From Candidatus Omnitrophota bacterium (GTDB lineage Bacteria; Omnitrophota; Omnitrophia; Omnitrophales; Aquincolibacteriaceae), in NCBI GenBank assembly GCA_022711115.1, contig JAKLFP010000003.1, forward strand, positions 201,199-265,198: a stretch of DNA of 64,000 nucleotides, in the 5' to 3' direction. Below the pieces are notes generated by a model. The model did not search any database and had not been told where the DNA came from. It saw only the letters and a list, made by a program, of their open reading frames with translations. Within the stretch, counting starts at the first letter, position 1. Each line of letters opens with the position of its first letter. The position numbers and the translations under genes were made by a program. Positions 1 to 32,682 of this stretch are shown in pieces.

Positions 1-242
1 CCATCTTGAAAGAAACCAATTGCGGTTATGAAGCCCCTAAGGACCCGAACACAAAAAAACTGCTGGCACAAAACATCAAGGGGGAGCAGTGCGCGATCGA
101 AACCTACAAAAGCCTTCTTGATTTTGTCAAAGGCAAGGACGCCATCACGGAAAAGATAGTCCTTGAGATCCTGGAAGACGAGGTGGAGCATGAAGAAGAT
201 CTCCAGGCGATGCTCGACGACATGAAATCGCCGGTCAAGTAA
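1..242 (+). CDS. ferritin-like diiron-carboxylate protein, C-terminal fragment (gene continues upstream of window start)
   Basis: The reading frame is open to the window edge, and the listed ORF 6..242 merely starts at an internal TTG. The C-terminal pattern ...AIETYKSLLDFV...ITEKIVLEILEDEVEHEEDLQAML resembles the last helices of bacterioferritin/ferritin-like proteins. Confidence 0.4.
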   Translation, partial: ILKETNCGYEAPKDPNTKKLLAQNIKGEQCAIETYKSLLDFVKGKDAITEKIVLEILEDEVEHEEDLQAMLDDMKSPVK

Positions 243-254
243 GGGCAGGATTTT

Positions 255-1070
255 GTGACAGACTCATTCGGACAGCCCCACATCCTCCTGCAGGCTCTTC
301 TCGCGGGGCTTTTTACCTGGGGGATGACGGGACTCGGTGCGGCAACGATCTTCGCGTTCAAAAAGATCAATCAGAAAATTCTGGATGTTATGCTTGGATT
401 CGCAGCCGGCGTGATGATCGCGGCAAGTTTCTGGTCGCTTCTAACCCCTTCGATCGAAATGGCCGAAGCGCAAGGCATGATCCCATGGTTGCCGGCCTTG
501 ACCGGATTCCTTCTCGGTGCCGCGTTCTTCCGCGGCATCGACAAGATCCTGCCGCACCTCCATCCCCTGCTCCCGGATGAAAAAATTGAAGGCATCAAAA
601 CCACATGGCCGAAATGCACCCTGCTGGTGTTGGCTCTGACTATCCACAATATCCCGGAAGGCCTCGCGGTCGGGGTCGCTTTTGGATCGACAGGCTCCGG
701 CGCTCATTCGATGCCGATCATGGCCGCGCTGGCGCTCGCCGTCGGGATCGGGATCCAGAATTTCCCGGAGGGATTGGCGGTCTCCTTCCCTCTTCACCGG
801 GACGGTTTCTCAAAAGGAAAAAGTTTTTGGTATGGGCTTCTTTCTGGAGTCGTTGAGCCGATTGCCGCGGTGATCGGCGCGGCTATTGTCGTGCTGGTCC
901 AGCCGCTTCTGCCTTACGCCCTGGCGTTCGCGGCGGGAGCCATGATCTTCGTGGTGGTGGAAGAGGTGATCCCCGAATCCCAACAAGGCGGCAACGGCGA
1001 TCTCGCGACTACCGGGACCATCCTTGGATTCGCTACCATGATGCTTCTCGACGTCGCGTTCGGAGCTTGA
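255..1070 (+). CDS. zupT: ZIP family divalent metal transporter (ZupT-like)
   Basis: A 271-aa polytopic membrane protein with the HNIPEGLAVG and NFPEGLAV signatures typical of ZIP/ZupT transporters. Confidence 0.8.
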   Translation: MTDSFGQPHILLQALLAGLFTWGMTGLGAATIFAFKKINQKILDVMLGFAAGVMIAASFWSLLTPSIEMAEAQGMIPWLPALTGFLLGAAFFRGIDKILPHLHPLLPDEKIEGIKTTWPKCTLLVLALTIHNIPEGLAVGVAFGSTGSGAHSMPIMAALALAVGIGIQNFPEGLAVSFPLHRDGFSKGKSFWYGLLSGVVEPIAAVIGAAIVVLVQPLLPYALAFAAGAMIFVVVEEVIPESQQGGNGDLATTGTILGFATMMLLDVAFGA

Positions 1071-1104
1071 CGGTGTGAGAAGGCCCGAACTATCAGAATA
1101 TGCC

Positions 1105-1134
1105 TTGACAGGTATATTCCATTATTGGTATATT
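1105..1134 (+). promoter_or_regulatory. putative sigma70-type promoter (-35 TTGACA 1105-1110, -10 TATATT 1129-1134) flanked by a 9-bp direct repeat, upstream of the ArsR-family gene
   Basis: TTGACA is followed by an 18-nt spacer and then TATATT. The direct repeat ggtatattc occurs at 1111-1119 and 1127-1135. The first ATG of the ArsR ORF (1140) lies 6 nt after the -10, so the transcript may be leaderless. Confidence 0.35.
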
Positions 1135-1139
1135 CAAAC

Positions 1140-1442
1140 ATGTCAAAACCTTTGATTGATCCTAAAATACTTCAAACTGCCGCAAAGATCCTTCGAGCAC
1201 TGGCGCATCCTTTGCGTCTGCGTATCATTGAAAAGCTAAAAAAAAGGAAATATTCCGTCGGGGAACTGGTCACCGCTTTGGACTTGCCTCAAGCGGTTGT
1301 CTCAAAACATTTGGCGCTTCTTAAAAACACGGGGATCTTAACCAGTAAAACAGACTGCAATTTCCGCTACTATTCGATCGCCAACAGTAAGGTCCTTGAC
1401 GTCCTGAGCTGCATCCAAAAAAGCTGTTCTAAGGAGAATTGA
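1140..1442 (+). CDS. ArsR/SmtB family transcriptional regulator
   Basis: A winged-HTH pattern LAHPLRLRIIEKL...YSVGELVTALDLPQAVVSKHLALLKNTGIL is present. The listed ORF starts at TTG 1125, but the first ATG at 1140 is more plausible. The stop overlaps the next gene's start (ATGA at 1439-1442). Confidence 0.8.
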   Translation: MSKPLIDPKILQTAAKILRALAHPLRLRIIEKLKKRKYSVGELVTALDLPQAVVSKHLALLKNTGILTSKTDCNFRYYSIANSKVLDVLSCIQKSCSKEN

Positions 1443-3898
1443 CCATGCGCATTTTAATCGTAGGAGGAGTGGCAGGAGGCGCCTCCGCGGCCGCCCGCGC
1501 GAGACGCTTATCGGAAGATGCCGAGATCATTATCTTCGAGCGGGGCGACTACGTTTCTTTCGCTAATTGCGGGCTTCCTTATCATATCGGGGGCGTCATC
1601 AAAGACCGCGAACGATTGATCGTCCAAAGCCCGAACAGCATGCGAAAAAATTTCAGGATCGATGTGCGAACCGGAACGGAAGTCCTCAAGATCGACCCAG
1701 TCAAAAAGCTCATTGTTACCAAGGAACTTTCGACAGGAACCGAACGTAAAGAACCTTATGATTTCTTGATCCTGAGCCCCGGCGCGGAACCGGCGCGTCC
1801 TCCCCTGCCAGGCATTAATTCCAGAAAAATCATGACCCTGCGAAGCTTGAATGACATGGACGCGATCAAAAAAGCCATCGATACGGATCGTCCCGAACGA
1901 GTCTTGATCCTCGGTGGCGGCTACATCGGACTGGAAATGGCGGAGGCCCTCAGAGAACGGCAGGTCAACGTGACGCTTGTCGAACTCATGAACCAGGTCA
2001 TGGGGCCCACGGACCCTGAAATGGCGGCACCCCTTCATCAAGAACTTACCCTTCACGGCGTGGATCTCCGGCTGGGGACCTCGGTCAAAGGTTTCCGTGA
2101 AGAAAAAAATATTCTTTACGCCGACCTCAGCACCGGAGAATCCCTGGCTTTCGGTTTGGCTGTCCTTGCCGTTGGCGTTAAACCGGAAACCCGCCTTGCG
2201 CGTGACGCGGGGCTGAAACTCGGAACACGCGGAGGTATTTCGGTTGACGCAGGCATGCGAACCAGCGACCCGTTCATTTACGCGGTAGGCGACGCTGTGG
2301 AGGTGAAAGATCTCGTCACAAACGAACCCTCTCTCATCCCCCTTGCCGGTCCCGCGAACCGGCAAGGACGGATCGCCGCGGATAATATTTTCGGCAGGAA
2401 CTCGACATACAAAGACACTCAAGGTACGGCGATCTGCAAAGTCTTCGGCCTTACGATCGGCATGACCGGAACAAACGAGAAAAACCTGAAGCGGCTGAAG
2501 GTCCCTTATGAAAAAATCTATATTCATGCCGCATCCCACGCAAGCTATTACCCCGGCGCGTCACCCATTAATTTAAAATTGATCTTCGATCCCAAAACAG
2601 GAAAAATCCTCGGGGCTCAAGCTGTCGGACCGGACGGGGTGGACAAGCGGATCGATGTGATCGCGGTAGCTCTGCGTGCCGGGCTGACAGTCTATGATCT
2701 TGAGGACATGGAGCTTTCTTACGCCCCGCCCTACGGCTCGGCAAAAGACCCTGTCAATTACGCCGGATTTGTCGCGGCAAATGTTCTCCGCAAAGACGTG
2801 CTTGTCTGCCACGCGGAAGACGCCTTGCATCCCAGAAAAGACCAGCAGCTTTTGGATGTCCGTACTTCCGCTGAAATCACTTCCGGCATGATCCCGGGCG
2901 CGATCCATGTCCCTCTCGACCAACTTCGGGAAAGATTGCCGGAACTTTCAAAAGATAAAGAATACCTCCCCTACTGTAAAGTCGGCCTGCGCGGCTATCT
3001 TGCCTGCCGGATCCTTTCCCAGCACGGGTTCAAATGCCGCAACCTGACCGGAGGTTATGACACTTATCAGGCAAGCCTCGGGCTTGCGGTGAAGCGACCG
3101 GTCATAAAAGACATGAGAGACGACACCGGAGCTCACGGATTCCTTGCGACAAACGAAAATCCTCACACTTCGCTTGTCAAAGAAATTGACGCATGCGGCC
3201 TGCAATGCCCAGGCCCGATCCTGCGCATCAAAACCGAGATCTCAAAGATCCAGACCGGAGAAGCTCTCCGGATCTCCGCCACGGATCCCGGGTTCGTCAC
3301 TGACATTCAGGCGTGGTGCAAAAGCACGGGGCATCAATTGCTTGAATTGAAGCCCGTTTCGGGAAAATACCAAGCCACGATCGTCAAACAGCAACCGGGA
3401 GATCCCAAGGAAACCTCCATGGATTATTCCAAAAAGAAAACCATAGTAGTCTTTAGTTCGGATTTTGATAAAGTGATGGCCGCGTTCGTCATCGCCAACG
3501 GGGCGTTGGCCATGGAAAGTGACGTAACGATGTTTTTTACTTTTTGGGGGTTGAACGTCCTGCGAAAACCCAGCCCCGGGCGCGTAAGCAAAAACTTGAT
3601 TGAAAAAATGTTCGGTTTCATGATGCCTCGCGGCGCCGACAAACTTTCCCTTTCCAAAATGAACATGGGCGGCATGGGACTTCAGATGATCAAGGGCATC
3701 ATGAAGAAAAAGAACGTCGCTTCCCTGCGCGAATTGATCGCCAGCGCCCAAGCTTCGGGCGTCCGGTTTGTCGCTTGCTCCATGTCTATGGACTTGATGG
3801 GGATCAAGAAAGAAGAATTAATCGACGGCGTCGAGACTGGCGGCGTCGCCATGTATCTTGATAACGCCCAGCAAGGCAATGTGAATCTTTTCATTTAA
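1439..3898 (+). CDS. multidomain sulfur-trafficking oxidoreductase: CoA-disulfide reductase-like FAD/NAD(P) pyridine nucleotide-disulfide oxidoreductase + rhodanese + TusA-like + DsrE/DsrF-like
   Basis: The N-terminus has the FAD-binding motif ILIVGGVAGGASAA and the redox-active SFANCGLPY. The middle has a rhodanese segment (QQLLDVRTSAEI...CKVGLRGY). This is followed by a TusA CPGP motif (CGLQCPGPILRIK) and a DsrE-like C-terminus (TIVVFSSDFDKVMAAFVIANGA). The protein is 819 aa. Confidence 0.8.
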   Translation: MTMRILIVGGVAGGASAAARARRLSEDAEIIIFERGDYVSFANCGLPYHIGGVIKDRERLIVQSPNSMRKNFRIDVRTGTEVLKIDPVKKLIVTKELSTGTERKEPYDFLILSPGAEPARPPLPGINSRKIMTLRSLNDMDAIKKAIDTDRPERVLILGGGYIGLEMAEALRERQVNVTLVELMNQVMGPTDPEMAAPLHQELTLHGVDLRLGTSVKGFREEKNILYADLSTGESLAFGLAVLAVGVKPETRLARDAGLKLGTRGGISVDAGMRTSDPFIYAVGDAVEVKDLVTNEPSLIPLAGPANRQGRIAADNIFGRNSTYKDTQGTAICKVFGLTIGMTGTNEKNLKRLKVPYEKIYIHAASHASYYPGASPINLKLIFDPKTGKILGAQAVGPDGVDKRIDVIAVALRAGLTVYDLEDMELSYAPPYGSAKDPVNYAGFVAANVLRKDVLVCHAEDALHPRKDQQLLDVRTSAEITSGMIPGAIHVPLDQLRERLPELSKDKEYLPYCKVGLRGYLACRILSQHGFKCRNLTGGYDTYQASLGLAVKRPVIKDMRDDTGAHGFLATNENPHTSLVKEIDACGLQCPGPILRIKTEISKIQTGEALRISATDPGFVTDIQAWCKSTGHQLLELKPVSGKYQATIVKQQPGDPKETSMDYSKKKTIVVFSSDFDKVMAAFVIANGALAMESDVTMFFTFWGLNVLRKPSPGRVSKNLIEKMFGFMMPRGADKLSLSKMNMGGMGLQMIKGIMKKKNVASLRELIASAQASGVRFVACSMSMDLMGIKKEELIDGVETGGVAMYLDNAQQGNVNLFI

Positions 3899-3930
3899 CC
3901 AACGTTTTCAACTACACATAAAGGAGATTT

Positions 3931-4722
3931 TTGATGAAAAATAAGAATATCATCGCATCGCTCTTAACCGTGATGTGCCTGGTTTCGGGCCTGGCTTTTC
4001 CCGTATACGCGGAAGAAACTGCGGCCACGCATCTTCCGCTGATCGGAGATGACGCCCCGGCTTTTACGGCCAAAACAACTCAAGGGACGATCAATTTTCC
4101 GGAGGATTATAAAGGGAAATGGATCATCCTCTTCAGCCATCCCGCGGACTTCACGCCGGTCTGTACGACGGAATTTATGACGTTCGCAACTATGCAGCTG
4201 GAATTCGAAAAACTCAACACGCAACTTGTCGGTCTTTCCATCGACAGCGGTTACAGCCATATCGCATGGCTCCGGACCATCAAAGAGAAAGTCGAATTTA
4301 AAGACATGAAAAATGTCGAAGTGACTTTCCCGTTAATTGAAGATATTAAAATGGATGTGGCTAAAAAGTACGGCATGCTCCAACCCACGGCAAGCACCAC
4401 GCAGGCTGTACGCGCTGTCTTTTTTATCGACCCGGCAGGAAAGATCCGGGCGATCCTTTATTATCCGCTCTCTAACGGACGCAATTTCGACGAGATCAAG
4501 CGGCTTCTGATCGCGATGCAAACCTCAGACGCTTACAAGATCGCCACCCCCGCCAACTGGCAGCCGGGCGACGACGTGATCGTCCCTCCCGCAGGTTCGT
4601 GCGGAACGGCGAAGGAACGCATGGAAAAATCCGGGCAGGGTGAACTGGACTGCAAGGACTGGTTCATGTGTTTCAAAAAGCTGTCCAAGGAGCAAGTCGA
4701 AGAAGGGCTTAAAAAGAAATAA
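3931..4722 (+). CDS. secreted 1-Cys peroxiredoxin (Prx6-like) with N-terminal signal peptide
   Basis: The signal peptide is MMKNKNIIASLLTVMCLVSGLAFPVYA. The peroxidatic motif is FTPVCTTE. A consensus RBS AAGGAG lies at 3921-3926. Confidence 0.8.
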   Translation: MMKNKNIIASLLTVMCLVSGLAFPVYAEETAATHLPLIGDDAPAFTAKTTQGTINFPEDYKGKWIILFSHPADFTPVCTTEFMTFATMQLEFEKLNTQLVGLSIDSGYSHIAWLRTIKEKVEFKDMKNVEVTFPLIEDIKMDVAKKYGMLQPTASTTQAVRAVFFIDPAGKIRAILYYPLSNGRNFDEIKRLLIAMQTSDAYKIATPANWQPGDDVIVPPAGSCGTAKERMEKSGQGELDCKDWFMCFKKLSKEQVEEGLKKK

Positions 4723-4754
4723 AGCAGACTTTCTTCAGCCTGCTTCATTGACAA

Positions 4755-4786
4755 GGGACGGTTCTCAAAAAAACCGTCCCTTTTTT
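4755..4786 (+). terminator. rho-independent terminator after the peroxiredoxin gene
   Basis: A 9-bp stem gggacggtt/aaccgtccc (4755-4763 and 4772-4780) has an 8-nt loop and is followed by the T6 tract 4781-4786. Confidence 0.6.
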
Positions 4787-4803
4787 CTTGCCATCCCCTC
4801 ACC

Positions 4804-4847
4804 TTGACAAAAAATCCTTGGAAGGATATTATTAGCATATGCTAATA
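4804..4847 (+). promoter_or_regulatory. sigma70-like promoter (-35 TTGACA 4804-4809, 17-nt spacer, -10 TATTAT 4827-4832) overlapped by a perfect 18-bp palindromic operator (tattagcatatgctaata, 4830-4847)
   Basis: This was read directly from the sequence. The palindrome is perfectly self-complementary, overlaps the -10 hexamer and the predicted transcription start, and lies 17 bp upstream of the DUF134 start codon (4864). Confidence 0.5.
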
Positions 4848-4863
4848 ACTAAACGGAAAACTC

Positions 4864-5238
4864 ATGCCTCGCCCTTTTAAATGCCGCCGCGTTTCAGGAA
4901 CCCCGGGCTCGCAATATTTCAAACCAAGGGGCATCCCGCTCCTTGACCTTGAAGAAGTCGACCTGACGCTCGACGAGTTCGAAGCGATCCGGCTCGCGGA
5001 CCTGGAGGATTTCTATCAGGAAAACGCCGCAAAAAAGATGGGCATCTCAAGACAAACATTCGGAAACATTATCGCCGGCGCACATAAAAAAATTGCCGAC
5101 GCCCTTGTGAACGGCAAGGCCCTGAAGATCTCAGAGAGCGCTTTCGCGAAAACAGCGGGACGGTCGTGTTTCCGCCACCGTAAAAAGTGCGGGCAAAACA
5201 AACTTCTTAGGGCAAAAACTGATGGAATCCACGCATGA
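4864..5238 (+). CDS. DUF134/UPF0251 family putative DNA-binding protein
   Basis: The N-terminal MPRPFKCRRV signature and a sigma-70 region-4-like HTH (MGISRQTFGNIIAGAHKKIA) are present. The stop overlaps the next start (ATGA). Confidence 0.7.
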   Translation: MPRPFKCRRVSGTPGSQYFKPRGIPLLDLEEVDLTLDEFEAIRLADLEDFYQENAAKKMGISRQTFGNIIAGAHKKIADALVNGKALKISESAFAKTAGRSCFRHRKKCGQNKLLRAKTDGIHA

Positions 5239-5417
5239 TCAGGATCGAAGAGACGCTATGCGATGGCTGCGGCATTTGCAAAGAGATCTGTCCCGTAGAC
5301 GGTGTCAGGGTCATCAACGGCAAAGCTGTTGCCAATTTGAAATGCATGGACTGCGGGACTTGCATAAGCTCTTGCCCTCCCCAGGCAATTTCCGCGAACA
5401 AGGTTGAAGCATCATGA
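5235..5417 (+). CDS. 2x[4Fe-4S] ferredoxin
   Basis: Two cysteine clusters are present, CDGCGICKEICP and CMDCGTCISSCP. The protein is 60 aa and is ATGA-coupled on both sides. Confidence 0.8.
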   Translation: MIRIEETLCDGCGICKEICPVDGVRVINGKAVANLKCMDCGTCISSCPPQAISANKVEAS

Positions 5418-6013
5418 GCCACGATTCGGTTATTCTTTCTCTTTATAAGCGAATCCGGTTATTCAGAAAATATGGCTATGATCTTCCCGCATCGAGAAAG
5501 TACCTTTTGGAAAAGTGCATCCCCTTTGTCGGGAAAGTCCTGGAAATCGGCAGCGGCAAGGGACATTTCACGGCTTGTTTGGCAAAAAAGCGTTTTAAAA
5601 TCATTTCCGTGGATCTGGATCCTGATGCATTGAGGATCTCAAAAAAACATCTCACCGCGTTAAAACTATCAAAACAGGTCCTGTTCCGAAAAATCAACGC
5701 GGAAAAACTCCCCTTCCCTTCCCGGAGTTTTAACCAGGTCGTTTCAATAGACTTTTTCCATCACGCGAAGAATCCCTTTCGGTGTCTTCGCGAAATGATG
5801 CGTGTCACGCAAAAAAATTTACTGATCGCGGACCTGAACAAAAAAGGCATGCGGGTCATGGACCGCGTCCACCAACTCGAAGGGAAAAAACATGAATCCA
5901 GCCGAATCTCATTCAAGGCTTTGAAACGGCACCTTGAGAGAAACGGATTCCTTGTCAAAAGCTACCGTCACAACTGTCATCAGATCTTTCAAGCTCAAAG
6001 GAGGGACTTATGA
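5414..6013 (+). CDS. class I SAM-dependent methyltransferase
   Basis: SAM-binding motif I VLEIGSGKGHF is followed by an acidic loop VDLD. Confidence 0.7.
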   Translation: MSHDSVILSLYKRIRLFRKYGYDLPASRKYLLEKCIPFVGKVLEIGSGKGHFTACLAKKRFKIISVDLDPDALRISKKHLTALKLSKQVLFRKINAEKLPFPSRSFNQVVSIDFFHHAKNPFRCLREMMRVTQKNLLIADLNKKGMRVMDRVHQLEGKKHESSRISFKALKRHLERNGFLVKSYRHNCHQIFQAQRRDL

Positions 6014-6375
6014 GAATCTGCATTCCAACCACCACCCGAGAAGGGAAATCCGCCCGTGTTCACGAACATTTCGGAAGCGCCCCTTTCTTCACGATATGGG
6101 ATAAGGAAAAAGACGTCATGGAGATCATCGATAATGCCAATCAGCACCACAGCCACGGCATGTGCCATCCCATGACGTCACTGGCAGAAAAGAGGATTGA
6201 TGCTGTGGTCACAGGCGGCATGGGCGCTCGTGCCGTCCAAAAACTGAACGAGGGAGGCATCAGGGCCTATCGGGCCGTTCCCGGAACCGTCGATAATACC
6301 TTGAAGCAATTTTCATATGGCGGACTTCAGGAACTGACCATTGAGAACGCCTGCGCTCAGCACGGCTGCCATTAA
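6010..6375 (+). CDS. NifX/NifB-like dinitrogenase FeMo-cofactor-binding domain protein
   Basis: MRICIPTT...HFGSAPFFTIWD...AVVTGGMGARA is typical of the NifX/NafY/NifB C-terminal (DUF269-like) family. The protein is 121 aa. Confidence 0.7.
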   Translation: MRICIPTTTREGKSARVHEHFGSAPFFTIWDKEKDVMEIIDNANQHHSHGMCHPMTSLAEKRIDAVVTGGMGARAVQKLNEGGIRAYRAVPGTVDNTLKQFSYGGLQELTIENACAQHGCH

Positions 6376-6387
6376 ACATTCCGGTTT

Positions 6388-6855
6388 ATGCGGCAAGCCC
6401 AAGAAAAGCTTAAATCCTTACAAAAACTCTTTCATTCCGCCTGCGTAGTTTGCGGAAGAAAAAATCCTCAGGGCATGAAATTGCCTTTTCAGACTTGTAA
6501 GGATGGTTCGGTCAAGGCGCGATTCTTTTGCGACCGACTCTTACAAGGCTATCCGGGTTTGATACACGGGGGCATGACTGCGGCGATCCTTGACGGGGCC
6601 ATGATGAACTGCCTTTTTGCCCACGGCCGCATCGCCGTCACGGGAGCTCTTGCGGTACGTTTTTTGTCTCCTCTTGCCGTAGAACGAACGGTCACCGTCC
6701 GAGCACGGATCAAAAAATCGATCTCCATGTGGCATATCCTGGAATCCGAACTCCGGCAGGGCAAGCGAATCCTCGCGAAAGGAACCGCCAAATTCATGGA
6801 ATGTACCGAATATTTCTTTAAACAACATGAAAGGACGCGCGAAGAAAGAAAATGA
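6388..6855 (+). CDS. PaaI/4HBT hotdog-fold thioesterase
   Basis: The pattern GLIHGGMTAAILDGAMMN is typical of PaaI-type thioesterases. An N-terminal CxxC (CVVCG) is also present. Confidence 0.65.
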   Translation: MRQAQEKLKSLQKLFHSACVVCGRKNPQGMKLPFQTCKDGSVKARFFCDRLLQGYPGLIHGGMTAAILDGAMMNCLFAHGRIAVTGALAVRFLSPLAVERTVTVRARIKKSISMWHILESELRQGKRILAKGTAKFMECTEYFFKQHERTREERK

Positions 6856-7034
6856 ATCCTTGGATCCGGTTTCTCGCTTTGGTCTGCGAACGATGTCCCC
6901 TGTGCGCGATGGCCAGACGTTTTCCGAAATCTTCATTTGCCCAGCATATGAAACGCATAGAAAAATTCTGCCCTTTTTGTTTGGCTCACGAAAAATCAAA
7001 ACAGCATGATGGAAACAGCAAAAGCTTATTCTAA
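6852..7034 (+). CDS. small Cys-rich (CxxCxxC...CxxC) zinc-ribbon-like protein, possible sixth gene of the DUF134 operon
   Basis: The start overlaps the thioesterase stop by ATGA, the same coupling pattern seen upstream. The motifs are CERCPLC and CPFC. The protein is 60 aa, and coding is uncertain. Confidence 0.3.
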   Translation: MNPWIRFLALVCERCPLCAMARRFPKSSFAQHMKRIEKFCPFCLAHEKSKQHDGNSKSLF

Positions 7035-7055
7035 ATGGAAATTTGAAGAACCGTT

Positions 7056-7994
7056 TTAGGTCAGGAGGGCAAAGCTGAAAATCCCGGACGTGGTCTGGAC
7101 CTTGTTGCTTCCGAAAACATCCTGTTGAACACCGAGCTCAAGGCGAAAATGATCGCCAAACGGCATGATGAATCCGAGAACAACGCTGGCGAGGTTCGCC
7201 GTGGCCCCGTGCCCGCCGAAATCATGAAGATAAATGAACTCGGCCTCGGGCTGCAGCCAAGATAAAACTTGATATCCCACCGCGAAATTCGAATGGGCGG
7301 TCCCGTAATAGTGCCCCGTCCGCTCCCAATGCGCGAGCGGTGAATTAAATCCGAGATTGATTGTTCCGTTCCAGCGGCCGATGTCCTTGGTAAACGCGAA
7401 CGAATTGTCCAGACTTGTATACCCCTGGCTCGCGCCGATATGATCCAGATTGCTGCGCCGGCCCGTCGGAACAAATATCGTCGGCATGTACGCGATCTCC
7501 AACCTTTTCTCCGCGGAATCATAGAACCGCCAGCGCCCCGCGATCCCAAGATCTCCCCATCCAAACCCGTGGGTTGGGCCTTCGGTTTCATCTTCCATAG
7601 AAGAACCCGTGTCCGGATCCATCATGTCCCTGAATTCGTTGTAATTATTGTTCTTATCCAAGGTGTGCTGGTACCACTGAATAATCCCGATATCGACCCC
7701 TTCATAAAGACCGATCGTCACCTGCGAATCAAAAGTTTGAGTTAAATAAGTCCCGCGTTTTTCTCGACTCCCGTTCGATTTCCATGCGAATTTCCCTCCC
7801 TGCAATGAATAGGAACTCCAGATTTCCACTTGCCCCGGATCATTGGTTGTCGCATCACTCGTCACGACCTTGGAATGTTCTTCGATCACAATATTCTCAG
7901 CCGCGTGCGTGGCGTAAACCGGGATCTGCCCGAGACAAAGCAAAAGAGTCAGCGTTATCGAAAGTTTGGAAACATTGACGCCCGATGATATCAT
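7056..7994 (-). CDS. outer-membrane beta-barrel protein (MetA-pathway/phenol-degradation-like transporter family), signal peptide
   Basis: The likely start is MISSGVNVSKLSITLTLLLCLGQIPVYA, an internal Met of ORF 7056..8042. The C-terminal pattern GIFSFALLT and aromatic-rich alternating segments support a beta-barrel. Confidence 0.45.
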   Translation of the reverse strand: MISSGVNVSKLSITLTLLLCLGQIPVYATHAAENIVIEEHSKVVTSDATTNDPGQVEIWSSYSLQGGKFAWKSNGSREKRGTYLTQTFDSQVTIGLYEGVDIGIIQWYQHTLDKNNNYNEFRDMMDPDTGSSMEDETEGPTHGFGWGDLGIAGRWRFYDSAEKRLEIAYMPTIFVPTGRRSNLDHIGASQGYTSLDNSFAFTKDIGRWNGTINLGFNSPLAHWERTGHYYGTAHSNFAVGYQVLSWLQPEAEFIYLHDFGGHGATANLASVVLGFIMPFGDHFRLELGVQQDVFGSNKVQTTSGIFSFALLT

Positions 7995-8170
7995 TTTTTT
8001 TCGGGAGGTTTCCCAGGCTTGAAGCAGTCCTTGGAACAACACCCGCCTCCTTTTTGTTTGATGAAATAAACAATCACAAGTAATACAGCCAACGCCACAA
8101 TGCCTAATGCAATCATCTCGCCTTTATCCATAAATTTCCCCCAAAAGAGAATCGTTTCGAACCCCAGAGT

Positions 8171-10159
8171 TTACTCGAACCCCAAAAGTTTACCGCCCTG
8201 GTAGACCACAAAAGAACTCGTCCACGCGAGTCCCGTCATGTACGCGATCATGAAAATCATCCATCCCCAAGAACTTGTTTCGCGTTTCACGACCGCGAAG
8301 GTTGAAAAACACTGACAGGCCAGCACATAAAATATCATAAGCGACAATCCCACCAACGGCGTATAAAGCGGTTGCCCGGTCTCCAGGGACTTGGCCTGCT
8401 GAAGAGCATGAATCAACCCTGTGGCAGATCCCTCGCCTTCCGTACGCACATGATGCACAATCGCCAGTGTACTGATCAGAAGTTCTCGCGCCGCAAAAGA
8501 AGCGATGATCCCGATCCCGATCTCCCAGTTGAATCCAAGCGGACGAATCACCGGTTCAATAATTTTTCCGAGGCGCCCGGCATAACTCGAAACAAGTTTT
8601 TGATTTTTTTCTTCATGTTCAAGAATGTCCAACCGTTCGGCCAGGGCCTCTCCCTGAAAAACAGCCGCCACTTGCTGCCGCTCATCGTAAAACTTTTTTT
8701 CGACGCTGGGGTCCTTGGGATAACTCATTAAAAACCACAAAATAATCGAGAACAGAAAAATAATACTCCCTGCCCTGTAAATGAACTCTTTGCTCCGGTC
8801 CCACATTGTCGCCAGAATCGTTTTAAAATGCGGGAAACGGTAAGGCGGTAATTCAAACACAAAAGGCATCCGGTTCCCTTTCAGGAAGGTCTTCCTGAAA
8901 AGAGCGGCCATGCCAAGCCCCGCTCCGATGCTCAGACCATACATGCCGAGCAGCGTAAAACCCTGAAGAGAGAGAACGTTGAGCAGCATGATATTCGGAA
9001 TGAACGCGGCGATCAGCAGCGTGTAAATCGGCAGTCTCGCGCTGCAACTCATGAGCGGTGCGACAAGGATTGTGGCAAGGCGGTCATTACGGTCTTCGAT
9101 CGTCCGTGTCGCCAGCACTCCGGGGACCGTGCACGCAAACGAGCTTAAAAGCGGCAAAAATGCCTTGCCGTTTAATCCTACCGCTTTCATGATACGATCC
9201 AGAACAAACACCGCGCGGGCCATATACCCCGTATCTTCAAAGAAGGCTATAAAAAAAAACAAAAGAAAGATCTGGGGCAAAAAAACAACCACATTCCCCA
9301 CACCTCCGATGACTCCGTCCACCACAAGGCTTTGGAGCGCTCCGGCGGGCAACAACTCCTTGGCCCCATGCGCCGCATATTCCACCCCGTGGGAGATCCA
9401 TTCCATAGGAATTTGCGCCCATGAGAAAATCGACTGAAAAATGAACGCCATGACTCCGAGGAAGGTCAAAATCCCCCAAAACCGGTGCGTCAAAACTTTG
9501 TCGAGTTTTTCAGACCCTGTGAACTCTTTTTTCGGGACCCATCGCAAAACTTTTCCCAAGACTGCTTCGATCCTCTGGTAGCGGACCTCGGGAGCCAAGT
9601 CAGGTTGAAACGTGTTTTCTTTTTCAGCCGCAACCGTCTTGTTCAATTCTTGTTCGATAACTTCTTTCAACTTCCGAATATTTTCACGTCTCATGCCCAC
9701 CGTAAAAACACACGGCACTTTGAGCTGCGCGCTCAACTGTTCCAGATCGATTTCCGCTCCGTTCTCTTTGGCCATATCCCACATATTCAATGTCAGCACC
9801 ACAGGAAGACCCAACTCGATTACCTGGGTCGCGAGATAAAGGTTCCGTTCGAGATTGTTGGCATCGATCACCACAACGACGAGATCCGGAAGCGGCGTGT
9901 CTTTCTGCTTTCCAAACAAAACATTTTGAACGACTTCTTCGTCAAGAGAACGCGGGATCAGGCTGTAAGCCCCAGGAAGATCCAATACTGCTATTTCTTC
10001 ACCGCTGGAAAGGGTCATTTGCCCGACACGTTTTTCCACGGTCACACCCGGATAATTGGCCGTACTATGGCGGAGCCCTGTCAACGCGTTGAAGATCGTA
10101 GTCTTCCCGGTATTGGGATTTCCGACAAGCGCAATCTCCCTTTTCTTATTGGTCTTCAT
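8171..10159 (-). CDS. feoB: ferrous iron transport protein B
   Basis: The G-domain has the P-loop GNPNTGKTT plus DLPG and TLNMWD motifs, followed by a large polytopic membrane domain. The start was chosen at MKTNKKREIALVGNPNTGKT. Confidence 0.9.
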   Translation of the reverse strand: MKTNKKREIALVGNPNTGKTTIFNALTGLRHSTANYPGVTVEKRVGQMTLSSGEEIAVLDLPGAYSLIPRSLDEEVVQNVLFGKQKDTPLPDLVVVVIDANNLERNLYLATQVIELGLPVVLTLNMWDMAKENGAEIDLEQLSAQLKVPCVFTVGMRRENIRKLKEVIEQELNKTVAAEKENTFQPDLAPEVRYQRIEAVLGKVLRWVPKKEFTGSEKLDKVLTHRFWGILTFLGVMAFIFQSIFSWAQIPMEWISHGVEYAAHGAKELLPAGALQSLVVDGVIGGVGNVVVFLPQIFLLFFFIAFFEDTGYMARAVFVLDRIMKAVGLNGKAFLPLLSSFACTVPGVLATRTIEDRNDRLATILVAPLMSCSARLPIYTLLIAAFIPNIMLLNVLSLQGFTLLGMYGLSIGAGLGMAALFRKTFLKGNRMPFVFELPPYRFPHFKTILATMWDRSKEFIYRAGSIIFLFSIILWFLMSYPKDPSVEKKFYDERQQVAAVFQGEALAERLDILEHEEKNQKLVSSYAGRLGKIIEPVIRPLGFNWEIGIGIIASFAARELLISTLAIVHHVRTEGEGSATGLIHALQQAKSLETGQPLYTPLVGLSLMIFYVLACQCFSTFAVVKRETSSWGWMIFMIAYMTGLAWTSSFVVYQGGKLLGFE

Positions 10160-10472
10160 GCCCCCCTCGATGGCGATGCTGTCTCCTGCGTTCGCAGCAA
10201 GAATCTTCGCCGTTCCTTTCCGTGTCTTTTTCGACAAGAATGCACTTCGCATCCTGCTTTCGTATAGACAAATAATAACCACGGATCCTCAGCTCCATGG
10301 GATCGGCCAGAGGCGCGCATCGCCGAACCTTGATCCATGTGCCTGGAACAAGCCCCAGCTCTTTCAGACGATAATGAAGATCCTGAGTTTCCGTAAATCC
10401 CCGGATCACACCGCTTTCTCCGGGTAATAGTCGGTCCAGGGTCGTAAGCTTTAAGTCCGGCATTTGGTGCAA
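10146..10472 (-). CDS. feoA: ferrous iron transport protein A
   Basis: An SH3-like FeoA pattern is present (LPGESGVIRGF...LKELGLVPGTWIKV). It overlaps the feoB start in a different frame. Confidence 0.7.
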   Translation of the reverse strand: MHQMPDLKLTTLDRLLPGESGVIRGFTETQDLHYRLKELGLVPGTWIKVRRCAPLADPMELRIRGYYLSIRKQDAKCILVEKDTERNGEDSCCERRRQHRHRGGHEDQ

Positions 10473-10888
10473 AGCCCCACAAGCTGGTGACAGTGAAATT
10501 CAACTTTAAATTCGAACCGCTCAGCGATCTTTTTCTGAAGTTTCTCAATGATCGGATCGCTGAACTCAACAACTTTGCTGCAAGTCCGGCAATAAAGATG
10601 ATCATGATGTTTCTTTTGATTCGCTGCCTCATAATAAGTGTCACGACTCGTTTTAAAACTCTGCTCGATCACTCCGGCCTCAAGAAGGATCGGAATGTTG
10701 CGGTAGATCGTATCGCGGGAAACACGGAGTCCTTGTTTTCCCAACCGGCGGACAAGCTCATCCACGTTAAAATGCCCGCGCTGTCGGCTGACGCCCTCAA
10801 GGAGTCTGAGACGCTCTTCCGTCACACGGAGATTTTTCTTTCGAAGAAAAGTATGGAATCGATCGTTTTTTACCGCCTGCATAAACAT
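10451..10888 (-). CDS. fur: Fur family transcriptional regulator
   Basis: A winged HTH (RVTEERLRLLEGV) and the metal-binding motifs HHDHLYCRTC...HCHQLVGLCTKC are present. It lies immediately upstream of feoAB. Confidence 0.85.
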   Translation of the reverse strand: MFMQAVKNDRFHTFLRKKNLRVTEERLRLLEGVSRQRGHFNVDELVRRLGKQGLRVSRDTIYRNIPILLEAGVIEQSFKTSRDTYYEAANQKKHHDHLYCRTCSKVVEFSDPIIEKLQKKIAERFEFKVEFHCHQLVGLCTKCRT

Positions 10889-10889
10889 C

Positions 10890-10914
10890 CTTATTAAGAT
10901 TGAGTCTTAATAAA
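10890..10914. promoter_or_regulatory. Fur-box-like AT-rich palindrome abutting the fur start
   Basis: cTTATTAAGA-ttgag-TCTTAATAAa is a 9-bp perfect inverted repeat with a 5-bp spacer, sitting 2 bp from the annotated ATG. The true start may be the downstream Met. Confidence 0.35.
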
Positions 10915-10979
10915 GATTGTACGAGGAAGAGAGGTTCCTGTCAAATAATTAGGCTTTAAGCGGCTGGGAACTGCCCAAG

Positions 10980-11840
10980 CTACGGCAAGCCGGTAAGCTG
11001 AGAAATGGATTGGCTGATACTGTAGTCGTTGATTTTAGAATCTGCAGAGTTGGTGTGAGTTTGCGTCTTCATGACCTTCGCAACCACGGTACCCGTCCGA
11101 TAGTCCAGATAGCATGTTTCTTGAACCTTAGAGCGGATATAAAGCGTGAGATTTTTAAACAACACTTTCAGGCGTTGCGTCTGGATCTGATCGGTTGTTG
11201 TTTCGACCACCGCGCAACGTCTTCCCTTGATCTCCGCGAACCCGGTGAGCGTACTTTTAGCTTGCACCTTATAGGGAGATTCCTCGATCTGCTTTACAAA
11301 AATCGAATTGAGACGAAGTGACATCGATTCCTCATAGCTCCATGCATCACCTGTTTTTACGGGATGCTCCGGAAAAAGCGGGGTCCGGGTCCAATTCATG
11401 ATCGTAAATTTTCCCTCTCTGGAATCATGTTTTCCTTGAACCAGTTTTAAGATCTCTCCGCGAGTGGAAATTTCGGTCTCTTCAATGATCTTTCCGGAAT
11501 GCCCTTCAAAAGAAGACTCCGCTAATAGCAAATAAGAATCGTTTCGCGATCCCTTCCGGTAAGTTTCAACCCGCTGATCCTTCAAATCAATCAACTTGCC
11601 GCGGCCATCCCGAACCTGCGCATAAATCTTGGTTTCTTCGCGGATTCTCAGAATGTTTCCCTCAGGAACCGATAGTCGGAGCGTCACGCCCGCCTGTTCT
11701 TCCGGACTGGGCTGCACATGCACGATCCCAAGCCTGGTAAAAGGATCCTCAAAACTCAAAGGACCTATACGGCCGCCAAGCCCCGCACATCCTGATGTAA
11801 AAACAATACTGACAAATATGAAAACAAAAGCTTTTTCCAT
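10980..11840 (-). CDS. hypothetical lipoprotein
   Basis: A lipobox is present (MEKAFVFIFVSIVFTSGC). I recognise no conserved domain. Confidence 0.45.
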   Translation of the reverse strand: MEKAFVFIFVSIVFTSGCAGLGGRIGPLSFEDPFTRLGIVHVQPSPEEQAGVTLRLSVPEGNILRIREETKIYAQVRDGRGKLIDLKDQRVETYRKGSRNDSYLLLAESSFEGHSGKIIEETEISTRGEILKLVQGKHDSREGKFTIMNWTRTPLFPEHPVKTGDAWSYEESMSLRLNSIFVKQIEESPYKVQAKSTLTGFAEIKGRRCAVVETTTDQIQTQRLKVLFKNLTLYIRSKVQETCYLDYRTGTVVAKVMKTQTHTNSADSKINDYSISQSISQLTGLP

Positions 11841-11859
11841 AAACACGACTTTTGGGAAA

Positions 11860-12147
11860 TCAGAATTTCGATTGAGCCACAACAAACATAACAGAGCTCA
11901 AAATTCCAAGCGCAGCGCCTAAAATCACTGTGTTGCGGACTTCACGCGGCTCATCGATCGGTGCGACTTGCCAATTAAACTGTTTCATGATCCACTGGTA
12001 TAAAGCTATGGATCGTTTTGGCCAAAAAATCGAAAGAACGCTAAGACCGATTCCCAAAAAACTGATCGCTAGGAAAATTATCTTAGGTGAAAAGCAACAG
12101 CACGCGAATTTACTGAGCGGACATTGCGTCATTTTGTTTCCTCCCAT
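11860..12147 (-). CDS. small hypothetical membrane protein
   Basis: Two hydrophobic segments are present. Coding is uncertain. Confidence 0.25.
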   Translation of the reverse strand: MGGNKMTQCPLSKFACCCFSPKIIFLAISFLGIGLSVLSIFWPKRSIALYQWIMKQFNWQVAPIDEPREVRNTVILGAALGILSSVMFVVAQSKF

Positions 12148-29090: not shown

Positions 29091-32000
29091 CTATTCGTTG
29101 GCCAAATAAAATTTGATGGCTCGCTCGAGCAGATAATGCAAAAGCACATCTTTATAAGAAAGCGACTCGTGATAAAAAGGTTTGATACTGACATCTTCTT
29201 TTTTTAGAAGCCGGCTGCTTAGTCGAAAAAATCTGATAGAACCATCGCCGGCATTGGGAATACGTTTGACACTATTTTGGGAACGCACTTGCTTTCTTGG
29301 GTCACTCGTTTGCGCCAACACATCCTGCAGAGTATTTTGCTCAGAAGTGATTTCAGATTGTTTGGCTAACGGCTGACTTTCGGTTTGAGAACCGGCGATC
29401 ATGGTTGCCGCGAGTCCTATCACACCGGCGGGAACGGTGCGGTCATAATAGGAAAAATTGTCCTGAATCTGGCTCCAAGCAAAATTCAAAAGCCCATAGC
29501 CGATGCCCCAAGGGTTAAATAATGAAAAAATTTGAGTCACGGAATTGTAGTTGACCAACGCATAAGTATGACTAGGAACGACGCCGCTTCCGGAGACAGG
29601 ATTGCTTTTGGCCGTGAAGGTGAGGAGCGTATTCGGAGTGTTCCACGAATTCACGACCACGTTCCATTGGCTCGGATCCGGCAACCAGCCTGTTGTAACC
29701 GCATTTCCGGAAATAGCCTCGAGCGCATATGAGGAACTTCCCCATCCGATCGCGCGGTAACTATTCGAGTTTTTACCCCACTTTTCATGGATCTGGACAA
29801 ACGCCTTCTCGGCAAGAGCTGCCCATAATTCGGCATTATAATCGTAGGCAAAAGCACCGCGATTGGCGTATACAAAAACCCACGACGGTTCAACCGGCAC
29901 CTGACGATCCACGGTGACATAATCTGCAATACCCTCCTTAAAAAATCGTACGGTATAAGTTCCGTCACCGTTATCGATGAACATATCTGCGATGACATCC
30001 GGAGTCCGGCGAGCCGTTTCCGCAAGAGCGGCCAGAAAATAGCAGTCTGATGTAGCCCCCTGCACAATATCGGAATAACTGATCCCATTGACAAAAAGAC
30101 GTCCCACAGCAGCTCCACGATAGCTGCCGTCTTCCGCAACCGGACGGTCGAGTCCTAGAAACCATTTATTCACAAGCTTTTGAAGTTGCGCGGCCGAAGA
30201 TCCGGGCATTAAATTCCCCAAGGCCGTCTCCTGATAAACAGCATTAGCCTGGTTCCCAAGAATAACGGCATTCGCGAGGACATGAACATAATCAAGTTCT
30301 TTATAAAAAGCAGGACGATTTTGCATCTCCTGCAAGAGTGAAAATTCCACTGCCGAAACAAGACCTTCATCCTGAACCGCGTTTAAAATGGACAACAGAT
30401 CAGCCCGATTCAAAATGCCGTCGGATAAATCCGCCTGAATCAAAGAAGCCAAAGCAGTATCCGGACTCACGGTATAGTTGGACCCGTTTACTCTAAAATA
30501 AATCGTTTGGCCATTGAGTTGCGTGATTTGGATTCGGGTCATCAAGGCAAAGGTCTGTATATCGCTGGCCCAGGTACGGAACGTGTCCATGATCCCGTCA
30601 AAGAGCAGTTTTGCATTGATGGCCGTGCCGGTGCGATAATCGGCCGTTAGGGTCGTGAAATCGGGAACCGCATTCGGTGAAATATCAAAAGAAAGCTGAC
30701 TCAGCGTACCCATCAGAAAACCACTCCCCGTTACGGTAATTTGACATCTTGGAGGCACACTTCCGCTGATATAGGCCGCGCTCACTATTGTCCCAGCACT
30801 CAAGGCCGCTTGAAACTGAGCCACGTAATTTTTAACTTGAGGAGACGGTTGCTGCTCGAGATGAACGCCAGTAGCGTCACGATAGGCCTTGTAGTAGGAG
30901 TTCTCCAGTCTAAAGTATGTCGTTTGATCCTCATCTTTGCCCGTAATCATGAGCTGCATCATCGCGTAAAGTGTCTGAATATCGTTCAGTTTTGAGATCG
31001 GCGACATTTTCAAAGCCTGGAATAACATGCTCGCAGGAACTGTGATGTCAGCCGCCGAACCTTTATAGTTAGCCCGAATCGAACCTGCCACCAATTGACC
31101 GTTCGGCGAAAGATTGAAGAACAGATCCTTGAAGGAACCTTGCATGTTCGGCCAGGGGTCATAAACATGCACTTCATATTCAGGATTGGCGCAAAGAGAG
31201 CAAAAAGATATTTGTGTTTCATAGTTATATGTAAAGAGAGCTTGCAATTGAGTCACATAATTCTGAACCGCGGTTCTGAAGGCTTGATACGATTGATTTT
31301 GATAATTGAAATAAATCACACCGTTGACAATAGAAGTCACATTCAATTGCGTCAAGGCCACAAGGGATGCGACATCATTTTTAAGAAAAGGCGATTGATG
31401 GAATGTGAGAAAAAGCAGATTCGAATCGATGCCAGCAATACCCTGATAACTTACCTGAAGGGTCGGAATATCGAGCGTTCCATTCTGTTTAATTACAAAT
31501 TCCATCCGGTTCAAGGCACCGGTCGCTGCGGCAGCATTGGTCACAATGACTTTATAGCCGGAGGTCCTGTAAACGTAGTGAAACGTCAAACTTCCGATGC
31601 TGTTTTTAAACGAAGAGAGTGTGGCCACAACAGGTGCCGGAATATCCATATCGGTTGATTGTTTGATAAGATCAACAAGATAACTTGTCCGGACCGACAT
31701 CGGATCTGTCCACACAAGCCATGAAGGTGAAGATACGGAAGTAATGTTCGCTGTGATGCTGCCGCTGGCCGAATCAACAACGATCCGGGTGATCTGAGAT
31801 CTCCAATTCCCTCCCTGACAATTGATATCACTACAGGTGGTCCGCCAGATGGAAGAAAGAACATAACCTGCCGCATAATTAAATTGGGCCTGCGTACCGG
31901 TCTTCAAATCCACCACTTGTTTGATGTTGTATTGACCACCATAAGTCATTATGACGATCTTGCCCACATCCATCAAAACACCATTTCGGGTTTCAGATAT

Positions 32001-32354: not shown

Positions 32355-32682
32355 TCTAAAGCCTCCGATAAAATTTATAAATCTCGATCAAATTTCTCTA
32401 CATTAAAGAGTTTTATTTTGTGTTAAAAAAGTTAAAACCATTTTAACTTTCTTTCGCTAAAAGATAGCATTTCTCTCATTAATGTCAAAAATGCGTTTAT
32501 GGAAGATTCTTCTTGCTATGAATTGATTTTTGGTATTTTAAGGAGTAACTTTTACAAAATTCTAAGAGGAAATCTTTAAACCAAAACGTGGAATTGTGAA
32601 TCAAAATAATCCATTGGCAGGATGAAGGTCTTTGATTAAAAACACCTGGTTCATACAACTAATGTTTGTGTCGTGATCCTTT

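Follow-up and report, generated by a model that had tools for sequence, protein, structure and literature searches.

A putatively self-regulated DUF134/NifX-like operon with a conserved 20-bp palindrome in Candidatus Omnitrophota

NifB, NifX and NafY bind precursors of the FeMo-cofactor. The family shared by NifX, NafY and the C-terminal domain of NifB (Nitro_FeMo-Co; PF02579, IPR003731) is represented, in the 64-kb stretch of a Candidatus Omnitrophota contig analysed here (hereafter the window), by a single-domain NifX-like protein encoded in an operon whose first gene specifies a DUF134/UPF0251 protein and is preceded by a 20-bp palindrome. This operon probably constitutes a self-regulated unit that binds, carries or buffers metal-sulfur species and does not build a metabolite. 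That the region is one sigma-70-transcribed operon, repressed by its own first product and with a metal-sulfur role, is the explanation that we consider moderately likely.

Ligands have been described for several other members of the family: IssA of Pyrococcus furiosus binds thioferrate, its isolated domain binding iron and sulfur (PMC5524996), MrpORP's Di-Nase domain binds a [3Fe-4S] cluster and the orange protein (ORP) binds a Mo-Cu-S cluster (PMC6345978). The closest described match to the DUF134/NifX-like operon is provided by the ORP clusters of Desulfovibrio (Orp3/4/5/8/9 and MrpORP), since both associate single-domain Nitro_FeMo-Co proteins with ferredoxin-type partners and both are specific to anaerobes; in some lineages, the operator described below governs MinD/ParA ATPases with a ferredoxin insert (MinD-Fer4) and Mrp/NBP35 ATPases, mirroring Orp3, Orp4 and Orp9 (PMC6345978). 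ORP operons however have sigma-54 promoters and a dedicated activator, whereas the promoter found here is of the sigma-70 type and the predicted regulator is a DUF134 autorepressor. Neither an ATPase gene nor a sigma-54 activator gene occurs in or next to the operon, which adds an S-adenosylmethionine (SAM)-dependent methyltransferase, a hotdog-fold protein and a small Cys protein, and whose NifX-like product displays another Cys/His signature. The operon might be viewed as a reduced ORP complex acting in cell division and not in metal handling, a view in keeping with the ATPases found under the same operator and with the relationship of the NifX-like protein to ORP (2wfb, E 2e-4), weaker than that to other solved structures. 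We regard it as highly improbable because, besides the missing ATPase, sigma-54 promoter and activator, the neighbours of the operon are metal genes and not division genes and the division role of ORP is itself only putative (PMC6345978).

In its predicted mode of action, the DUF134 protein resembles IscR, SufR, ArsR/SmtB, CsoR and NikR in that the first gene encodes a small dimeric DNA-binding protein, a palindrome lies over the -10 hexamer and the cargo relates to metals or Fe-S. It would work like these regulators without being one of them, its fold being unrelated (a sigma-70 region-4 helix-turn-helix, HTH, behind beta-hairpins).

The DUF134 gene and its predicted operator

Six consecutive open reading frames (ORFs), all on the + strand, occupy positions 4864-5238, 5235-5417, 5414-6013, 6010-6375, 6388-6855 and 6852-7034 of the window and encode, with lengths of 124, 60, 199, 121, 155 and 60 aa, the DUF134 protein, a ferredoxin, the methyltransferase, the NifX-like protein, the hotdog-fold protein and a Cys-rich protein. 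Start and stop codons overlap as ATGA at 5235-5238, 5414-5417, 6010-6013 and 6852-6855, the fifth junction, between the NifX-like and hotdog genes, being a 12-nt gap. A preliminary description of this DNA had listed the same six ORFs, their families and the four overlaps, all of which were recovered from the ORF list, the sequence and the Pfam and NCBIfam matches; its concern that the overlaps might arise from mis-called starts can be dismissed, the N-termini matching those of orthologues residue for residue. M1 and the invariant C4 of the NifX-like protein are aligned in 18/18 sequences, F17, G21, Y22 and D23 of the methyltransferase are conserved near the N-terminus in the family alignment, and inspection of the sequence revealed no alternative in-frame start codon ahead of the conserved N-terminal residues of either protein; the starts are thus immovable. 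An AGGAGG Shine-Dalgarno sequence is located 8 nt upstream of the NifX-like gene, within the methyltransferase gene. NTGA overlaps occur at four of the five junctions of the operon versus ca. 4 among ca. 47 same-strand junctions elsewhere in the window, a background taken from a crude gene call, and a binomial estimate of this excess over chance gives p ~3e-4. In 16 of 17 related genomes, the methyltransferase and NifX-like genes again overlap by 4 nt. Overlaps and conservation of the junction agree with the single, tightly coupled operon that had been proposed; the "stoichiometric co-expression" claimed alongside it goes too far, as overlaps indicate translational coupling and not a measured stoichiometry. 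The 5' boundary of the unit corresponds to a terminator-like hairpin with a T-run at 4753-4782 (+ strand; 11-bp perfect stem, 8-nt loop, then TTTTTCTT), which ends the upstream peroxiredoxin gene.

The DUF134 gene is preceded by a sigma-70-type promoter at 4804-4832 (+ strand) that matches 11 of the 12 consensus positions, with TTGACA at 4804-4809, a 17-nt spacer and TATTAT at 4827-4832. A perfect 20-bp palindrome, the predicted DUF134 operator, lies at 4829-4848 (TTATTAGCAT-ATGCTAATAA): it begins at base 3 of the -10 hexamer, spans the expected transcription start and leaves 15 nt between its end and the DUF134 start codon. The palindrome is single-copy in the window even when up to 3 mismatches are tolerated, 0.01 copies being expected by chance.

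Conservation of this element was assessed in both directions. A one-genome-per-species scan with a methyltransferase profile yielded 16 Omnitrophota loci (38-64% methyltransferase identity), a sample that is unbiased for the DNA element because the genomes were found through a protein. The pattern TTATTRGCATATGCYAATAA occurs exactly once, just upstream of DUF134, in 15 of these 16 loci and as a close variant in the remaining one, and promoter and palindrome stand in the same register in 18 of 21 loci chosen by protein and not by DNA. The palindrome was also found in loci of Elusimicrobiota, Margulisiibacteriota and Planctomycetota, the Planctomycetota copy preceding a TrmO-like gene that heads the operon. 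In the converse test, metagenome contigs were scanned with the 20-mer alone, which returned at least 119 loci; all counts given here and below for operator-selected loci hold among the matches listed. Of the 82 loci flanked on each side by 450 nt or more, 75 have DUF134 directly adjacent to the operator. In four of the other seven, the gene is nonetheless located in or beside the operon: a divergent DUF134 falls below the detection threshold in one, two have the operator followed by Mrp/NBP35 and then DUF134 (one of them with a NifX-like gene before DUF134), and in the last the operator is followed by a NifX-like gene to which DUF134 is convergent. Exact operator copies with no DUF134 nearby occur at L135 1781-1800, L128 709-728 and L050 3749-3768, their settings being the inside of a cysteine-desulfurase-like ORF, a group of small phage-like ORFs and the region upstream of a 453-aa ORF; these three could be either chance matches or extra members of the regulon.

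An Rfam scan of the whole window detected no RNA family, which rules out a known riboswitch or leader, and an RNA hairpin is unlikely because transcription should start inside the palindrome; a DNA operator is therefore the natural reading. A sigma-54 reading of the TGGCA...TGC motif was also discarded, its GG-to-GC spacing being 5 nt and not 10.

The DUF134 protein itself (4864-5238, + strand) matches PF02001 over residues 3-89 with 83.6 bits against a cut-off of 27, and 3,661 relatives were found for this protein alone. N-terminal beta-hairpins with a conserved MPRPxKCRR..FKPxG are followed by a sigma-70 region-4-like HTH, for which the AlphaFold model reaches a predicted local distance difference test (pLDDT) value of 85-93. 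In this model, the HTH superposes on region 4 of extracytoplasmic function sigma factors, including a region-4 structure bound to -35 DNA, at 0.7-0.9 A over ca. 50 residues; it also fits the HTH domains of DeoR proteins, the sigma/DeoR set giving overall 0.6-0.9 A over 40-50 residues. The aligned orthologues all have the same recognition helix, SRQTFGNI.

Across three DUF134 subfamilies, the recognition helix covaries with the inner triplet of the operator, the overall palindrome design remaining the same. Subfamily a, to which this operon belongs and whose context is DUF134 and NifX-like, combines the helix SRQTFGNII with TTAT-TGG-CATATG-CCA-ATAA; subfamily b, heading an operon for an ArsP_1/SO_0444-like permease and a thioredoxin, has HRSTVSRIL and TTAT-GCA-CATATG-TGC-ATAA; and subfamily c, heading an operon of DUF134, methyltransferase and DUF5320 genes, has SRGTIQRLL and TTAT-GTG-CATATG-CAC-ATAT. 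Because the operator is conserved together with DUF134 and the helix and palindrome variants covary in the subfamilies, the DUF134 protein is very probably an autorepressor of its own operon. As would be expected of an autoregulated repressor operon, the palindrome overlaps the regulator's own core promoter and is conserved with the regulator. The earlier suggestion that DUF134 may regulate the operon is in this respect likely to be correct, the conserved operator providing strong comparative evidence.

Alternatively, the palindrome could be the site of a nearby regulator such as Fur, NikR, ArsR or DtxR, with DUF134 as merely the first structural gene: genes for these regulators lie within a few kb in many loci, and the ends of the palindrome are AT-rich as in many metalloregulator boxes. 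This we judge very unlikely, since DUF134 alone constantly adjoins the palindrome while each of the four regulators is found in a minority of loci, and since the palindrome at this position takes a different form in each of the three DUF134 subfamilies, whose helices also differ. Moreover, a different palindrome precedes fur in two Omnitrophota loci, L006 and L008, where a Fur-Feo operon is divergent from the DUF134 operon; this separate element, CTTATTAAGAyTAAGTCTGAATAAG, is located between the two operons, beside the fur start. If DUF134 is the regulator, a dimer bound to the 20-bp palindrome would cover the transcription start as well as the -10 hexamer and keep RNA polymerase out until a signal releases it; a metal, an iron-sulfur species or sulfide is the probable signal, and it may reach DUF134 via its NifX-like partner.

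The paralogues of the two other subfamilies were also located. Subfamily b genes occur at L005 5027-5308, L006 3005-3307, L008 3280-3570 and L009 2631-2924 (all on the - strand), in an operon with the ArsP_1/SO_0444-like (Cu/Zn efflux-like) permease and a Thioredoxin_3 protein, and follow a peroxiredoxin in L009; their own TTGACA/TATTAT promoter is overlapped by the palindrome TTATGCACAT-ATGTGCATAA. Neither this paralogue nor its palindrome is present in the 64-kb window. Subfamily c is found at L147 3540-4642, and also in L148, where its operator, TATGTGCAT-ATGCACATA, keeps the same register relative to the promoter. There, the DUF134 gene is followed by a distant member of the methyltransferase family and then by two DUF5320-like Gly/Arg-rich proteins, and no NifX-like gene occurs.

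Gene content and products of the operon

The order DUF134, methyltransferase, NifX-like is found in 16/16 Omnitrophota loci, the other genes being present in only some genomes, among them those for a C_GCAxxG_C_C protein in 7 and a metallo-beta-lactamase (MBL)-fold protein in 5. Outside Omnitrophota, DUF134 and NifX-like remain ca. 70-80% identical with all Cys/His residues kept, and the arrangement is DUF134, NifX-like, hotdog in Elusimicrobiota, TrmO_N-like, DUF134, NifX-like in Planctomycetota, and DUF134 followed by a YibE/F membrane protein in Margulisiibacteriota; the methyltransferase is missing from the Elusimicrobiota and Planctomycetota loci examined. Among the 55 operator-selected loci with enough downstream sequence, 48 contain a NifX-like gene, in line with the DUF134/NifX-like associations mentioned in the preliminary description, and 17 contain the methyltransferase. 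With respect to the co-occurrence of the six genes in other genomes, DUF134, methyltransferase and NifX-like are thus constant in Omnitrophota and the ferredoxin, hotdog and small Cys genes are not.

These distributions bear on the pathway first proposed for the locus, in which the six proteins would form a small cofactor or metabolite biosynthetic or tailoring pathway with electron supply, methylation, scaffold and thioester hydrolysis as its steps. The tight coupling of the genes, the occurrence of typical enzyme types (methyltransferase, hotdog, ferredoxin) and the lengthening of the operon by MBL-fold and C_GCAxxG_C_C proteins in relatives would all suit such a pathway. As a fixed multi-step pathway it is not supported, because the accessory genes come and go and other phyla keep the DUF134 and NifX-like pair: the ferredoxin, hotdog, small Cys, GCAxxG and MBL genes are each found in a minority of genomes and in varying combinations, most operator-controlled operons lack the methyltransferase, and a core biosynthetic enzyme (ligase, radical SAM enzyme or synthase) is never present. 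The neighbours, moreover, are metal transporters and metal regulators, and we hold this explanation to be distinctly unlikely.

Under the metal-sulfur reading, the main cargo of the operon would be the NifX-like protein (6010-6375, + strand; 121 aa), with a Cys/His pocket that would bind or carry a metal-sulfur species. It matches PF02579 with 74.1 bits (versus 26.3), has a 100% identical counterpart in a Candidatus Omnitrophota metagenome-assembled genome, and its orthologues are all 121-122 aa long. Residues C4, H20 (in HFGSA), H46, H47, H49 and C52 (in NxHHxHGxCxPM) are invariant, as are C115, H118 and H121 of a C-terminal NACxxHxCH motif in which C120 is kept in 17 of 18 sequences. The closest solved relatives, with E-values of 3e-12 to 2e-7, are TM1290 (1rdu), TM1816 (1t3v, 1o13), MTH1175 (1eo1) and PH0822 (2yx6), all deposited as hypothetical proteins without function. 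In the two alignments compared, TM1290 has AHGTG opposite the HHSHGMC loop of the NifX-like protein, and the C-terminal CxxHxCH motif occurs in neither TM1290 nor TM1816.

The fold and family, including the HFG motif, are shared with NifX, NafY and the C-terminal domain of NifB, but the host lineage and the context are not those of nitrogen fixation: the protein scores 17.1 bits against the NifX model TIGR02663 (cut-off 112), and no nif gene was found in positions 1-12000 of the window (ca. 10 kb either side) or in related loci. IssA and the NifX-like protein are both stand-alone IPR003731 domain proteins of anaerobes with an iron-related context. In IssA, acidic residues are conserved and the C-terminus is extended by a long cationic tail rich in Gly (PMC5524996), whereas the NifX-like protein ends directly after the domain, at residue 121 with NACAQHGCH, and relies on His/Cys. 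By family precedent and from its partner genes, its ligand is most likely a cluster of the Fe-S type; the His-rich pocket and the proximity of NikR, CbiM and ZIP genes would also allow nickel or zinc.

The coupled methyltransferase (5414-6013, + strand; 199 aa) belongs to a small, distinct family of class I SAM-dependent enzymes. It has a GxGxG motif, an acidic residue ending strand 2 and a Methyltransf_11 match of 67.6 bits, with the SAM-binding residues G46, G48, G50, D67 and A96 invariant in the family alignment; the AlphaFold model (pLDDT 90) shows an alternating strand-helix pattern, and Foldseek retrieved only generic small-molecule methyltransferases (AtmM, RebM, TM1293 and others). Among 1.84 billion proteins, the family counts 89 cluster representatives at E<=1e-30, every named close homologue being from Omnitrophota. 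Scores remain below the NCBIfam cut-offs for DVU_1556 (45.7 vs 155), ArsM-type (42.5 vs 510) and MenG/UbiE (44.4 vs 158) models. A lead towards the pairing of DVU_1556-family methyltransferases with C_GCAxxG_C_C proteins was abandoned, both proteins scoring under their own NCBIfam cut-offs, and no literature on this pairing was found. Residues H116, H117 and C124 were likewise discarded as a special metal site, as they sit in the ordinary post-motif-II region of class I methyltransferases; further conserved His/Cys are H153, H160, C188 and H189.

Members of this family also occur as fusions, namely as a 299-aa methyltransferase-DUF134 fusion (P0027) seen in independent assemblies of one lineage and as a methyltransferase-NifU_N fusion (P0314). 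The NifU_N fusion lies in L146 3304-6217, where a cation diffusion facilitator (CDF) transporter (Cation_efflux and ZT_dimer) is fused to a Nitro_FeMo-Co domain; behind it come a NifX-like gene of 105 aa, the fusion gene, with a 4-nt overlap, and the gene of a Zn_ribbon_8 protein, the whole set standing downstream of a PAS/sigma-54 activator. The contexts of the distant relatives P0296 and P0337 are uninformative or unrelated (DUF5320 proteins; rubrerythrins). TM1293 of Thermotoga maritima (1vlm), one of the Foldseek matches, is presumably located three genes from TM1290, of all solved structures the one nearest to the NifX-like protein, and the two may represent an independent methyltransferase/NifX-like neighbourhood as far as locus numbering indicates.

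Methyltransferases of two unrelated types, one TrmO_N-like and one from a second family of class I enzymes, are likewise encoded in operons under this operator. With several types recruited and yet many such operons devoid of any, methylation is a recurrent but optional add-on. Its target could be a Cys/His of the partner protein, bound sulfur, a metalloid or the regulator's ligand, and the enzyme of this operon would be an Omnitrophota-specific addition acting on the NifX-like protein, on its load or on the DUF134 ligand. The recruitment of three unrelated methyltransferase types (with the family described here in 17 of 55 loci) would also suit a detoxification system, in which the methyltransferase would act on sulfide, a thiol or a metalloid (As, Se, Te) delivered by a NifX-like carrier and DUF134 would sense the toxic species. 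The efflux permease and thioredoxin under a paralogous DUF134, the sulfur genes nearby (a CoA-disulfide reductase (CoADR)-rhodanese-TusA-DsrE fusion, DsrE-like, YeeE/YedE) and the presence of ArsM-type models among the weak best NCBIfam matches point in the same direction. On the other side, the enzyme is neither ArsM nor a member of any named family and has no conserved Cys triad, ca. 60% of the operons with the operator have no methyltransferase, and no arsenate reductase or Acr3/ArsB gene lies nearby, so that detoxification by methylation appears unlikely.

The remaining products would be interchangeable accessories of the metal-sulfur unit, the ferredoxin supplying electrons. The latter (5235-5417, + strand; 60 aa) is a bacterial 2x[4Fe-4S] ferredoxin with two CxxCxxCxxxCP motifs (C9/12/15/19-P and C37/40/43/47-P) and Fer4 matches on two stretches; among the 16 Omnitrophota genomes it is found only in L006, L007 and L010, and it occurs in 6 of the 55 operator-selected loci. 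The 155-aa product of 6388-6855 (+ strand), initially called a PaaI thioesterase, does belong to the hotdog-fold 4HBT superfamily (32.7 bits vs 20.6) but cannot be assigned to PaaI (TIGR02286, 18.4 bits vs 118.9). A CxxCG motif stands at its N-terminus and is accompanied by an HGG...D helix; among solved structures, PA5202 and THEM4 come closest to it, and its gene is present in L003, L006, the Elusimicrobiota locus L023 and 8 of the 55 operator-selected loci. Finally, the 60-aa Cys-rich protein (6852-7034, + strand; CExCPLC ... CPFC) has no Pfam match; this optional ORF is found, 67% identical and with five conserved Cys, in L006 and the metagenome locus L029, where it always directly follows the hotdog gene and overlaps its end.

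Neighbourhood, regulon and significance

Other genes found under the same operator encode NifU_N scaffold-like proteins, MinD/ParA ATPases with ferredoxin inserts (Fer4), Mrp/NBP35 ATPases, DsrE-like proteins, further NifX paralogues, DUF5320 proteins and a ZraP-like protein with YeeE/YedE proteins. Upstream of the operon, the window contains a ferritin fragment, ZIP, ArsR with the CoADR-rhodanese-TusA-DsrE fusion and the peroxiredoxin, and metal genes near the operon in relatives include ZnuA/ABC-3, CbiM, NikR-CbiMQO and DtxR. Because the neighbours and the co-regulated genes are of metal and Fe-S types, we favour the handling of metal-sulfur species over that of a thioester-linked metabolite.

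Some features of this neighbourhood deserve mention in their own right. At 1125-3898, an ArsR-family regulator overlaps (TTGA) the gene of an 819-aa CoA-disulfide-reductase-like flavoprotein/rhodanese/TusA/DsrE_2 fusion that is likely a persulfide- or polysulfide-handling enzyme, and such an ArsR and fusion pair also stands directly upstream of the DUF134 operon in the metagenome loci L036 and L094. The peroxiredoxin at 3931-4722 is of the 1-Cys type (PRK13189, 342 bits), and its N-terminal hydrophobic leader would suggest export, which is unusual for this type. On the - strand, positions 7056-10888 encode Fur, FeoA and FeoB convergently to the DUF134 operon, together with a FeoB-associated membrane protein of 46 aa that is rich in Cys (7991-8131) and an outer-membrane protein of the Phenol_MetA_deg type; this Fur-Feo operon ends 22 nt from the stop codon of the DUF134 operon, with no terminator predicted between them. 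Further away, at 29091-40071 (- strand), are two very large ORFs of 1087 aa and 2462 aa.

Several points weigh against a metal-sulfur unit repressed by DUF134. Metal-gene neighbourhoods in small genomes may reflect general clustering and not function. The NifX-like protein lacks both the CxHFGxCE motif seen in the MrpORP domain that binds [3Fe-4S] and the cationic tail of IssA, so that Fe-S binding is suggested by analogy only, and its His-rich site, like the NikR, CbiM and ZIP neighbours, suits nickel or zinc equally well. The DUF134 protein has a single nearly invariant Cys (C7) and therefore no obvious ligand site, and no functional study of DUF134, including of DNA binding, was found in the open literature. 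As the metagenome loci were selected by exact match, they give no information on how often DUF134 genes occur without the operator. Lastly, the modelled fold of the methyltransferase matches generic small-molecule enzymes only, so no substrate can be named.

A broader proposal, which we put forward as speculative and rather doubtful, is that DUF134 proteins are widespread metal/Fe-S-status repressors of anaerobes whose recognition helix corresponds to a three-base code in the operator (TTAT-NNN-CATATG-NNN-ATAA), and at the same time that the NifX-like-coupled methyltransferase performs an undescribed SAM-dependent methylation of the species held (cluster or persulfide sulfur, bound metal or metalloid) or of a Cys/His ligand. 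Anaerobic bacteria and archaea encode thousands of DUF134/UPF0251 proteins, and a conserved operator with three covarying specificities turns what was a "predicted DNA-binding protein" into a testable regulator-operator pair. The operator also defines a regulon of NifX-like, NifU-like, Mrp/NBP35, MinD-ferredoxin and DsrE-like proteins and methyltransferases, and could thereby give access to the way in which strict anaerobes deal with Fe-S and metal-sulfur species, the unexplained clusters of the ORP type included.

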